A DNA stretch of 44,868 nucleotides from an uncultured Candidatus Saccharibacteria bacterium (GTDB taxonomy: Bacteria > Patescibacteriota > Minisyncoccia > Phycocordibacterales > Phycocordibacteraceae), in the NCBI GenBank assembly GCA_964593365.1, contig CAZQGQ010000004.1, forward strand, positions 1 to 44,868, in the 5' to 3' direction. Shown piece by piece: positions 1 through 3,321 of the stretch (position 1 is its first letter; each line of letters opens with the position of its first letter). Both the position numbers and the translations under genes were made by a program. The notes below the pieces were generated by a model. The model was not told where the DNA came from. It ran no database searches and saw only the letters and a list, made by a program, of their open reading frames with translations.

Positions 1-59
1 CTTGAACCCCCGACCTTCTCAGTGTAAATGAGTTGCTCTACCAACTGAGCTAAGCGCGC
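1..59 (-). tRNA. tRNA-Val(TAC), 3' end cut by window edge
   Basis: Reverse complement GCGCGCT-TA-GCTCAGTTGGTAGAGC (D arm), anticodon loop TT-TAC-AC, T loop GGTTCAAG at the edge. Confidence 0.9.
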
Positions 60-1693: not shown

Positions 1694-1778
1694 GCCCAGG
1701 TGTTGAAATTGGTAGACAAGCTACCTTGAGGTGGTAGTGCCGAAAGGCATGGAGGTTCGAGTCCTCTCCTGGGCACCA
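1694..1778 (+). tRNA. tRNA-Leu(GAG)
   Basis: Acceptor GCCCAGG/CCTGGGC-A-CCA, anticodon arm CTACC-TTGAGGT-GGTAG, long variable arm, GGTTCGAGTCC. Confidence 0.96.
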
Positions 1779-1788
1779 TTTGGCGAAA

Positions 1789-1831
1789 GAAAATAAGAGG
1801 ACCCCACGCGACATCACGAAGCGTAGGGCCC
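1789..1831 (-). terminator. Terminal hairpin/terminator of the Trp unit
   Basis: Minus strand GGGCCCTACGC-TTCGTGATGTC-GCGTGGGGTCC followed by TCTTATTTT. Confidence 0.7.
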
Positions 1832-1866
1832 AATAGTTATTGCCTGTTCAGGCTAGTGCCAACTGC

Positions 1867-1875
1867 TTACCACAT
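1867..1875 (-). CDS. Two-codon minigene Met-Trp-stop
   Basis: Minus strand AAGGGAG-7 nt-ATG TGG TAA GC, downstream of a Trp attenuator; positional twin of ATG CAC TAA GC at 2749-2757. Confidence 0.65.
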   Translation of the reverse strand: MW

Positions 1876-1916
1876 AGTTGGTCTCCCTTCATAAGGCTGG
1901 TCTGTAAGGTAGACGC

Positions 1917-1995
1917 AAAACCCCTCCGTAAGGAGGGGGTTGGCTTTATGCGTGGTTCAGGCATCAAGACAATCCTCTCCTTAGGAGGGGATGGT
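1917..1995 (-). promoter_or_regulatory. Transcription attenuator (Trp-responsive)
   Basis: Segment 1 1995-1984, segment 2 1980-1961, segment 3 1951-1932 (16 of 20 positions pair with segment 2); terminator AACCCCCTCC-TTAC-GGAGGGGTTTT 1941-1917. Confidence 0.8.
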
Positions 1996-2052
1996 CCAGG
2001 CCCACATGCCAAAACGCGCGGCAGAAATGGAAGCGGTGGCGTTTCGATTCAT
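1981..2052 (-). CDS. Trp leader peptide MNRNATASISAARFGMWAWTIPS (23 aa)
   Basis: ATG 7 nt after a -10 box; TGG-GCC-TGG directly before attenuator segment 1; stop codon directly before segment 2. Confidence 0.75.
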   Translation of the reverse strand: MNRNATASISAARFGMWAWTIPS

Positions 2053-2059
2053 TAGTACT

Positions 2060-2087
2060 ACCCTAGCAATTCCAGTAGAGTCGTCAA
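2060..2087 (-). promoter_or_regulatory. Sigma70-type promoter of the Trp unit
   Basis: TTGACG-16 nt-TAGGGT with extended TGn. Confidence 0.65.
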
Positions 2088-2124
2088 GCCACAGCGAATA
2101 GCCCAAAACTGCTATAGTTTGCGT

Positions 2125-2682
2125 ATGACGAGCAGCATTCAAGACAAGATAGCCCTCTTCGAGCGTGTATTGGCTGAAGTCCCCGAACTTCGCTATGCAG
2201 GCGATCCCATCCTTCGAACGCCAGCAAAAAGCGTGGCCTTGGAAGAAGGTCTTTTGATAGGGAAGCGGCTGGAAGAGGTACTGCTTCGCTTCCGTGCGAT
2301 TACTGGCGTTGGACGAGGGCTTGCAGCTCCGCAAATTGGAGAAGGTGCTTCTGTTTTTATTACGTACGTAGATGACACGGTTGAGACATTCATCAATCCC
2401 CGCATCGTTTCGACATCTGACACGAACAATATGTACAAAGAGCTTTGCATGAGCGTTGGCATTCTTGCAGCTGAAGTTGAGCGGGCAGAGGAAATACAGA
2501 TGGAGTGGACGGACGCTGAAGGGAACTCGCGCTCTGGGACTTTCAGTGGTTTTCTTGCGCGCCTCTATCAGCACGAGGAAGCCCATTTGCAGGGTCGTTT
2601 GAATATAGACGAGGCTACGCCAGGGGGAATTGAGTTTGCCACCTTTGACCCGCTCCAGGAAAAATTGCGACCGGTGAAATAA
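2125..2682 (+). CDS. def: Peptide deformylase (divergent motifs)
   Basis: GRGLAAPQIG, FINPRI, ELCMS (canonical EGCLS), QHEEAHLQG (HExxH); ATG 6 nt after TG-C-TATAGT. Confidence 0.88.
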   Translation: MTSSIQDKIALFERVLAEVPELRYAGDPILRTPAKSVALEEGLLIGKRLEEVLLRFRAITGVGRGLAAPQIGEGASVFITYVDDTVETFINPRIVSTSDTNNMYKELCMSVGILAAEVERAEEIQMEWTDAEGNSRSGTFSGFLARLYQHEEAHLQGRLNIDEATPGGIEFATFDPLQEKLRPVK

Positions 2683-2723
2683 AAGAAGCCCACGCAACGA
2701 CTAACGAAGTCGCGTGGGCTTCT
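2679..2723 (-). terminator. Terminal hairpin/terminator of the His unit
   Basis: Minus strand AGAAGCCCACGC...GCGTGGGCTTCT followed by TTTATTT; may also terminate def on the plus strand. Confidence 0.75.
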
Positions 2724-2748
2724 GGCTCATTGAGCTTGGCGGTTTAGC

Positions 2749-2757
2749 TTAGTGCAT
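2749..2757 (-). CDS. Two-codon minigene Met-His-stop
   Basis: Minus strand GGAGG-5 nt-ATG CAC TAA GC, downstream of a His attenuator. Confidence 0.65.
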   Translation of the reverse strand: MH

Positions 2758-2803
2758 TGTCGCCTCCACTTTCGGGCCTTCCGTTTTATGGATTAACGAA
2801 TTG

Positions 2804-2898
2804 AACCCCTCGTCACTTGCGTGAGGAGGGGGCTATCTTCATGACACTCATCAAGACAATCCTCTCCGCGCGCGTGACGCCGGATGGTGCAGTTTATG
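2804..2898 (-). promoter_or_regulatory. Transcription attenuator (His-responsive) overlapping the 3' end of the repressor gene
   Basis: His codons at 2898-2896 and 2889-2884; segment 2 2867-2848 (19 nt identical to the Trp unit); segment 3 2844-2825; hairpin 2834-2804 with a GCAA loop and a weak U tract. Confidence 0.72.
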
Positions 2899-3162
2899 CA
2901 TCATCATTTTGTAACCGCCTTCTCCTTCCTGGAGCCACTTCGATACGCGAGCAACGGTCGTTGAGCTAAAGCCCGTTTTCTTCTCGATCTCGGTGTAGGG
3001 AACGTGCTTTGAAAGGAGCTCTGCCGTCTGGAAGCGCTTAGCGAACTCCGTGATCTCGCCTTCGGTCATAAGGTCGCGCAAAAAGCGTCGAACCTCATCC
3101 GGAGTTTCAAGGGCGAGCAGGGACTCGATAAGGCGGCGGTTTTCTTTCAAGGTCCAATTCAT
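2851..3162 (-). CDS. YerC/YecD (HisR), TrpR-like DNA-binding repressor with His-rich C-terminus
   Basis: FLRDLMTEGE...YTEIEKKTGFSSTTVARVSKWL..G.GGY matches the YerC/TrpR-related pattern; tail MMMHKLHHPASRARRGLS. Confidence 0.88.
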   Translation of the reverse strand: MNWTLKENRRLIESLLALETPDEVRRFLRDLMTEGEITEFAKRFQTAELLSKHVPYTEIEKKTGFSSTTVARVSKWLQEGEGGYKMMMHKLHHPASRARRGLS

Positions 3163-3169
3163 CAAGAGG

Positions 3170-3199
3170 CACTTTACTAGGGTAAAGTGAGCGTGTCAA
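3170..3199 (-). promoter_or_regulatory. Promoter TTGACA-17-TAAAGT with overlapping 20-bp palindromic operator
   Basis: -35 at 3199-3194, -10 at 3176-3171; palindrome CACTTTAC-TAGG-GTAAAGTG at 3170-3189. Confidence 0.85.
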
Positions 3200-3244
3200 G
3201 CTGTCTTCCGGACCCTCTGTATTCGTGATATAACCACAACACAT

Positions 3245-3321
3245 GGCGGCCTTAGCTCAGCTGGTAGAGCTCCGGTTTGTGGTACCGGCGGTCGTGGGTT
3301 CGAGCCCCACAGGTCGCCCCA
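3245..3321 (+). tRNA. tRNA-His(GTG)
   Basis: G-1 followed by GCGGCCT acceptor pairing with AGGTCGC-C-CCA; anticodon arm CCGGT-TTGTGGT-ACCGG. Confidence 0.96.

Follow-up and report, generated by a model that had tools for sequence, protein, structure and literature searches.

Met-His-stop and Met-Trp-stop minigenes behind predicted histidine and tryptophan attenuators in a small Saccharibacteria genome: possible remnants of lost genes

Two-codon minigenes, of which bar of phage lambda is reportedly one, consist of a Shine-Dalgarno sequence (SD), a start codon, one sense codon and a stop codon within a transcript. Regulatory or tRNA-sequestering effects are credited to such minigenes in two papers (PMC8708949, PMC2490762), the first of which deals with mg2 of the axe-txe operon. 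The known effects run via translation of the mini-ORF, by protection of the mRNA in cis or by drop-off of peptidyl-tRNA. None of these cases is known to follow an attenuator that senses an amino acid, or to use the codon of such an amino acid, in contrast to the two minigenes described here, which are recognised from sequence.

The other relevant systems are the attenuators of amino acid operons. According to the part of PMC9413887 that is available, HisR (YerC) is a histidine repressor of the TrpR family, and leader-peptide His attenuators occur in Proteobacteria, with candidate ones in some Firmicutes. The units analysed here share with the trp and his operon attenuators of Proteobacteria and the candidate His attenuators of Firmicutes a short frame with a run of regulatory codons and mutually exclusive antiterminator and terminator helices. 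A T-run terminator is shared by the Trp copy and by relatives, and the logic of stalling at hungry codons would be the same. They differ in that a TrpR-family repressor provides the His leader with its C-terminal tail, in place of a separate peptide, that the genes regulated in relatives are non-biosynthetic (Cys-rich proteins, GNATs, unknown families and, once, hisS), and that in this genome a two-codon frame stands in place of a gene. The ORF upstream of the His minigene has the Trp_repressor domain in common with HisR (YerC); the available part of PMC9413887 makes no mention of a His-run repressor tail coupled to an attenuator. A limited literature search returned no relevant report on attenuators in Patescibacteria or Saccharibacteria, and neither unit matches an Rfam family at the gathering threshold or at E<=10.

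The window, i.e. the whole stretch of 44,868 nucleotides that was analysed, corresponds to contig C4 in a genome of 716,520 bp with a completeness rating of 99.7%, and the stretch occurs in microbial-mat metagenome runs and in no listed RNA run. The features of the His and Trp units and of their surroundings are as follows.

1694-1778, plus strand: tRNA-Leu, convergent, after the Trp unit
1789..1831, minus strand: terminator of the Trp unit, convergent with tRNA-Leu
1859..1887, minus strand: Trp minigene (GGGAG 1887-1883, 7 nt, ATG TGG TAA 1875-1867, GC)
1916..1950, minus strand: regions 3 and 4 of the Trp attenuator, CATAAAGCCAACCCCCTCC ttac GGAGGGG TTTTG
1962..1980, minus strand: region 2 of the Trp attenuator, the same 19-mer as in the His copy
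1981..2052, minus strand: stand-alone Trp leader ORF MNRNATASISAARFGMWAWTIPS (...FGMWAWTIPS, stop), with its Trp codons within 2004-1996
2119-2682, plus strand: def, convergent, between the His and Trp units
2677..2722, minus strand: strong terminator hairpin with T-run, closing the His unit and shared with convergent def
2749..2767, minus strand: His minigene (GGAGG 2767-2763, 5-nt spacer, ATG 2757-2755, CAC 2754-2752, TAA 2751-2749)
2804..2843, minus strand: regions 3 and 4 of the His attenuator, CATGAAGATAGCCCCCTCC, which pairs with the 19-mer or forms CCCCCTCCTCAC/GTGACGAGGGG
2849..2867, minus strand: region 2 of the His attenuator, the 19-mer GGAGAGGATTGTCTTGATG, overlapping the stop codon of the HisR-like ORF
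2851..3165, minus strand: TrpR/YerC (HisR-like) ORF of 104 aa (Pfam PF01371 Trp_repressor, E 6e-20, residues 11-92)
3199-3171, minus strand: promoter-like TTGACA-17-TAAAGT ahead of the HisR-like ORF
3246..3321, plus strand: tRNA-His(GTG), divergent from the HisR-like gene

At its very start the window also cuts a partial tRNA (1-59, minus strand; Rfam tRNA, 41.5 bits).

Both window copies have codons of the sensed amino acid directly upstream of the RNA switch. The tail of the HisR-like ORF, ...KMMMHKLHHPASRARRGLS followed by the stop (...MMMHKLHHP...), doubles as the His leader, its His codons lying within 2898-2884. The 19-mer GGAGAGGATTGTCTTGATG has just two copies genome-wide, identical in the His and Trp units. 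For the His copy the antiterminator was calculated at -19.6 kcal/mol versus -17.6 kcal/mol for the hairpin, and the His unit folds far better than its shuffles (z -5.8). The His hairpin is followed by GGGGTTCAATTCGTT, without a T-run, and is thus not called terminator-like, whereas relatives have GGGGGTTTTCGTTTG at this place. As a consequence, the His minigene is probably co-transcribed with the repressor mRNA irrespective of His supply, which makes its starvation-specific expression doubtful. The Trp element retains its leader, the 19-mer, the antiterminator partner and a T-run terminator; its hairpin (1938-1921, tail TTTTGCGTCT) is called terminator-like, and the element scores 83.1 bits with covariance model R1, of whose training set it is a member (best relative, 85.8 bits). 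Downstream of either attenuator there is a two-codon frame and then a terminator, and the regulated gene is absent.

The motif of the initial annotation, GGAGG-CGACA-ATG-CAC-TAA-GC, is indeed present on the minus strand at 2767..2747, the GC occupying 2748-2747 and the local reading being ...gaaagt GGAGG cgaca ATG CAC TAA GC taaacc.... The full pattern has this single match in the window, where 0.01 is expected from shuffles. As for its position, the minigene does lie behind the His attenuator hairpin (CCCCCTCCTCAC gcaa GTGACGAGGGG, 2836..2806), and the distance from the hairpin end to the ATG is 48 nt and not the 46 nt given initially. The Met-Trp twin that had been proposed at the same position and in the same TAAGC context was recovered as well: GGGAG accaact ATG TGG TAA GC (1887..1865), with the ORF ATGTGGTAA at 1875..1867, starts 45 nt past its own attenuator hairpin, whose GGAGGGG ends at 1921. 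Measured from the CCCCCTCC/GGAGGGG hairpins, the two minigenes therefore start 45-48 nt downstream, and they lie 36-44 nt ahead of a strong terminator. Both have SD, start, one sense codon and stop, as in the two-codon minigene type, with an intact SD (GGAGG at 5 nt for His, GGGAG at 7 nt for Trp). The flanks had been described as diverged, and this is correct: likeness between the two copies is at shuffle level both upstream of the ATG (1354/2000 shuffles reach the score) and from stop to terminator (548/2000), and goes beyond chance solely in the 19-mer, in one arm of the hairpin and in the terminators at the end of the units, these terminators being alike (0/2000).

That the single sense codon matches the sensed amino acid in both copies had been judged hard to explain by chance, and codon frequencies agree with that judgement. 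In 309 SD-preceded long ORFs the second codon is His in 4 (0.013) and Trp in 3 (0.0097), so a double cognate match is expected at about 0.013 x 0.0097 = 1.3e-4, a figure for the codons alone that leaves the stop at codon 3 in both copies uncounted. Genome-wide (716,520 bp, both strands, 1.43 Mb), GGAG or GAGG followed by ATG, one codon and a stop occurs in 34 cases, one of them with His (the window minigene) and two with Trp (the twin and an unrelated one). Pure chance is unlikely to have produced the double cognate match. Contigs from 4 DNA runs have depth in 30, 28, 18 and 14 of the 30 bins over 1700-3250; the pieces that lie over the two units show 0 other letters, with a partial cover that is uninformative on variation, and every listed difference is located within tRNA-Leu and stems from another organism.

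A search outside this genome gave 29 related elements, in related small genomes and metagenomes: 19 by an 18-mer pattern, 6 by HisR synteny and 4 by covariance model R1. The pattern scan of the genus (222 genomes) gave 53 matches versus 14 for a control pattern, and inspection of the genus-level matches outside G000 and G089 (50 loci) left 13 true elements. The scan of the order (401 genomes) gave 94 matches; the 40 that looked most motif-like by eye were inspected and 5 were true elements. Matches of a degenerate 18-mer scan of contigs were mostly due to chance, and among those listed L129 alone was useful. When the His unit was searched as DNA against 60 relatives, nothing above chance 15-20-mers was obtained. 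The loci of the family are window 1916-2052 and 2804-2898 (minus strand), L129, L193-L235, L256 and L289-L295. The family is characterised by a leader rich in His or Trp and by a region 2 of 19 nt, GGAGAGGATTGYSTTGATG, that pairs with CATCAA..CCCCCTCC; this partner of the 19-mer is at the same time the 5' arm of the terminator. In alignment A2 (20 sequences), 93.8% of the antiterminator cells are paired versus 44-58% when the arms are slid, and 5 pairs and 27 cells are changed on both sides; 0/500 shuffles reach the score. The claim of a His attenuator hairpin ahead of the minigene is thus strongly upheld by the 29 related elements and their covarying antiterminator.

The leaders are of a Trp type (..FWYWFT..), of a His type (HH or HHH, free-standing or fused to a repressor) and, in one case, Met-rich. 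As in the window, a TrpR/YerC (HisR-like) repressor often supplies the His-type leader with its C-terminal tail: homologues of the TrpR-like ORF, from genomes of relatives and from metagenomes, have His runs at their ends (LHHH.., NHVHHH..), after which a hairpin follows. In L129, from a MAG labelled Saccharibacteria, tRNA-His is divergent from the leader MKISTFATRHHHT..., as it is from the HisR-like gene of the window, and the leader is followed by the 18-mer, the hairpin and a hisS-like gene. Judged from these sequences, this is a widespread family of predicted attenuators in small genomes with a His leader that is often fused to a HisR-like repressor, and its design is that of classical leader-peptide attenuators, in which stalling at the regulatory codons would be the trigger. 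The minigenes are what led to this family. Among the 16 genomes of the genus with an R1 match, this genome alone has two elements, both orphans.

The content of the relatives at the minigene position bears directly on what the minigenes could be. Behind the hairpin and its T-run there are about 40-170 nt to the SD and ATG of a real gene, and in 29/29 relatives this is the start of an ORF of 55-437 aa. Absence of the start-His-stop pattern from homologues had been named beforehand as refuting the minigene, and the pattern is indeed missing from them: SD, ATG, one codon and stop within 300 nt behind the 18-mer was found in 0/29, the real gene starting there instead. Two TTG-started two-codon ORFs occur in the same 300 nt of the 29 elements, both non-cognate. 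Trp leaders precede small Cys-rich proteins of 55-80 aa, and most His leaders precede proteins of 116-437 aa (two of 57 aa), including two GNATs, two recurrent families of unknown function and, once, hisS; the proteins downstream of two unclassified leaders have 69 and 140 aa. Pfam searches assigned most of the regulated proteins to no family; 2 of them matched GNAT, and another weak match, in 2, was to phosphoribosyltransferase. The Cys-rich proteins behind Trp attenuators (L193, L202, L206, L219, L223, L224, L228, L230, L289, L292) are zinc-ribbon-like, and the 2 of these 10 that were scanned have no Pfam family. One of the recurrent families behind His-type attenuators comprises L221, L232 and L051 and the other L053, L234 and L235; the four members scanned (L221, L053, L234, L235) have no Pfam match. 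In L206, L215, L221, L232, L234, L235, L052 and L053 the SD of the regulated gene is immediately preceded by a recurrent motif, (A)GTTCTTT(A/G), which is absent in the His copy of the window.

From position, synteny and gene content we have fair confidence that the SD and ATG are the start of a lost attenuator-controlled gene. The reading that we favour, at a little under an even chance, goes further: Met-His-stop would be the orphaned ribosome-binding site and start of a gene lost after the His-sensing attenuator, and the remaining frame would be inert. In such a case, a ribosome stalled at the His codons would free region 2, which would form the antiterminator with CATGAAG..CCCCCTCC (region 3), and RNA polymerase would read into the downstream gene; when the antiterminator does not form, region 3 would pair with the GGAGGGG-type region 4 as a hairpin. 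The gene body would have been lost in this lineage, leaving SD, ATG, codon and stop before the terminator shared with def. With this frame alone remaining and no T-run at the His hairpin, the stretch is probably no more than a 3' UTR belonging to the hisR-like mRNA. A ribosome that loads at the His minigene may make fMet-His and leave, the product being of no use, and the Trp twin would be a remnant of the same type behind a still intact Trp attenuator. The cognate codons would then be a coincidence.

Several observations count for the lost-gene reading besides the real ORF in 29/29 and the two-codon frame in 0/29. The SD/ATG contexts of relatives and window are alike (G071 CAGGGAGACCTACATG versus AAGGGAGACCAACTATG in the window, G198 ACGATGCACT versus ACAATGCACT, L051 TTTGACATG versus GCGACAATG). 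The regulated gene of G198 opens with ATG CAC T, and for this reason the His codon of the window minigene could be inherited; no such opening with ATG TGG was seen in the Trp-type regulated genes (0/10). When the own genome was searched by tblastn with 22 regulated proteins of relatives, no match with E<0.05 was obtained except hisS (C2:110089), which also supports loss of the gene, as does the T-run that is missing at the His hairpin and present in relatives. Short non-cognate frames in the family point the same way. The SD-like GGAGAGG of the 19-mer with an ATG 9 nt further on opens tiny frames of 1-6 codons in most elements (e.g. L230, L129, L232), among them ATG-CGC-TAA-GC in Trp-type G241, M-S-stop in L129 and start-stop in G558 and G184, all of them non-cognate. 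In the Trp copy of the window, this ATG begins a longer frame of 38 codons, which runs through the hairpin and on through the minigene. Counting against the lost-gene reading, local alignments of the stretch after the minigene ATG with ORFs or 3' UTRs of relatives are at shuffle level (best 147/3000), so that the idea of a stump is backed by position and SD context and not by traceable remains. By-eye likenesses of TGTGGTAAGCAG to the CGKQ codons of G233 and of TAGTAAGCG at the stop of G241 were dropped, because these alignments are no better than shuffles. A multiple alignment of the spacer from terminator to start was too noisy for use.

Other observations count against loss of the genes as the whole explanation. 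These are the double cognate match with the stop at codon 3 and TAAGC in both copies, the two intact SDs, a Trp element so intact that it would be a strange thing for a genome of 0.72 Mb to keep as a useless relic, and the fact that this genome alone has two elements, both orphaned. The first three of these features also speak for functional starvation-sensing minigenes, in which selection would have kept or shaped SD, ATG, cognate codon and stop after the gene loss. We regard this alternative as possible and rather doubtful. Under His or Trp shortage, a 70S ribosome would hold fMet-tRNA in the P site and a hungry codon in the A site; such a complex might take up deacylated tRNA and switch on the Rel/RelA homologue that the genome encodes. 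Other conceivable effects are protection or marking of the read-through RNA and sequestration of ribosomes or of tRNA. In its favour are the match at about one part in several thousand given above, both ORFs being of exactly two codons, a Trp attenuator kept intact though nothing else is left for it to control, the homologues of RelA_SpoT (129 bits) and Pth (169 bits) that the genome encodes, and the precedent of regulatory or tRNA-sequestering two-codon minigenes in PMC8708949 and PMC2490762. However, none of the 29 related elements has such a minigene, the His minigene behind a hairpin without T-run would be transcribed constitutively with hisR, and the leader would already stall ribosomes on the same hungry codons, with little clear added gain. 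Taken together, the double-match statistics argue against pure chance, whereas selection is disfavoured by the absence of such a minigene in all 29 relatives, by the decay of the His terminator and by a function whose added value is not clear. It is possible, with the same doubt, that the lineage swapped two attenuator-regulated genes for the smallest sensor ORF, consisting of fMet, the sensed codon and a stop. Were this so, the read-through transcript would park a ribosome on a hungry A-site codon, as an amino-acid-specific trigger (e.g. of a Rel homologue) or as a starvation-gated RNA stabiliser, either of them previously undescribed. Should selection be acting on the cognate codons, no earlier natural case would be on record of an attenuator with a two-codon output ORF that reads the same amino acid, and the units would offer a simple testable model of starvation signalling by a stalled initiation complex. 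If the minigenes are only stumps, they would be a case of reductive evolution, a tiny genome having lost two starvation-induced genes and kept the switches.

A role at the RNA level and a second-stage leader are weaker options than a relic or a sensor. The first, which we find improbable, would make the read-through tail (about 110 nt, up to the strong terminator) a starvation-induced small RNA or a 3' UTR structure, in which a 'codon' in a hairpin loop might contact tRNA or another RNA. Both minigenes do lie within predicted loops, that of the Trp minigene, AUGUGGUAAGC, being closed by a 6-bp hairpin CCAACU/AGUUGG at 1881-1859, and the folding of the His unit noted above fits a structured RNA. 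But the loop hairpins are short (4 and 6 bp), two sequences are too few for covariation, and pairing of the loops with the anticodon loops of tRNA-His (UUGUGGU) or tRNA-Trp is limited to the three codon bases. The units resemble T-box riboswitches in that a loop ahead of a terminator presents a codon for the amino acid that is sensed; unlike these, they have no Rfam match, T-box included, no structure of the size of Stem I, no downstream gene and no pairing beyond the codon, and there are only about 40 nt to the terminator. The second option takes the minigene as a further leader of minimal size, with the strong terminator downstream under its control, a stall letting the polymerase run antisense into def (His) or into tRNA-Leu/rplS (Trp). 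Geometry alone, with the terminator so close behind each minigene and convergent genes beyond, would suit it. It is very unlikely, as folds judged by eye gave no convincing antiterminator alternative for the second terminators and the terminator stem would be out of reach for a ribosome placed at the ATG.

Applied to the own genome, covariance model R1 found the two known copies and a hairpin at C6:11455. The latter, a weak match (E 0.02), is not an attenuator. In this region (G000 C6:11455-11536; R1, 18 bits) a promoter-like TTGACG comes first and a hairpin of the CCCTC/GAGGG type follows, some 100 nt ahead of the gene for 16S rRNA. In L295 (G079:C1:347945-348044), the Met-rich leader MHTFAMMASMSTPRSRSFLMH happens to end in ATG CAC TAA, and this leader is possibly a Met-sensing variant. 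Finally, more distant YerC-like ORFs (L057-L059) lie directly upstream of an ORF recognised by eye, which we take to be hisG-like, and this adjacency fits a histidine-repressor role of the family.
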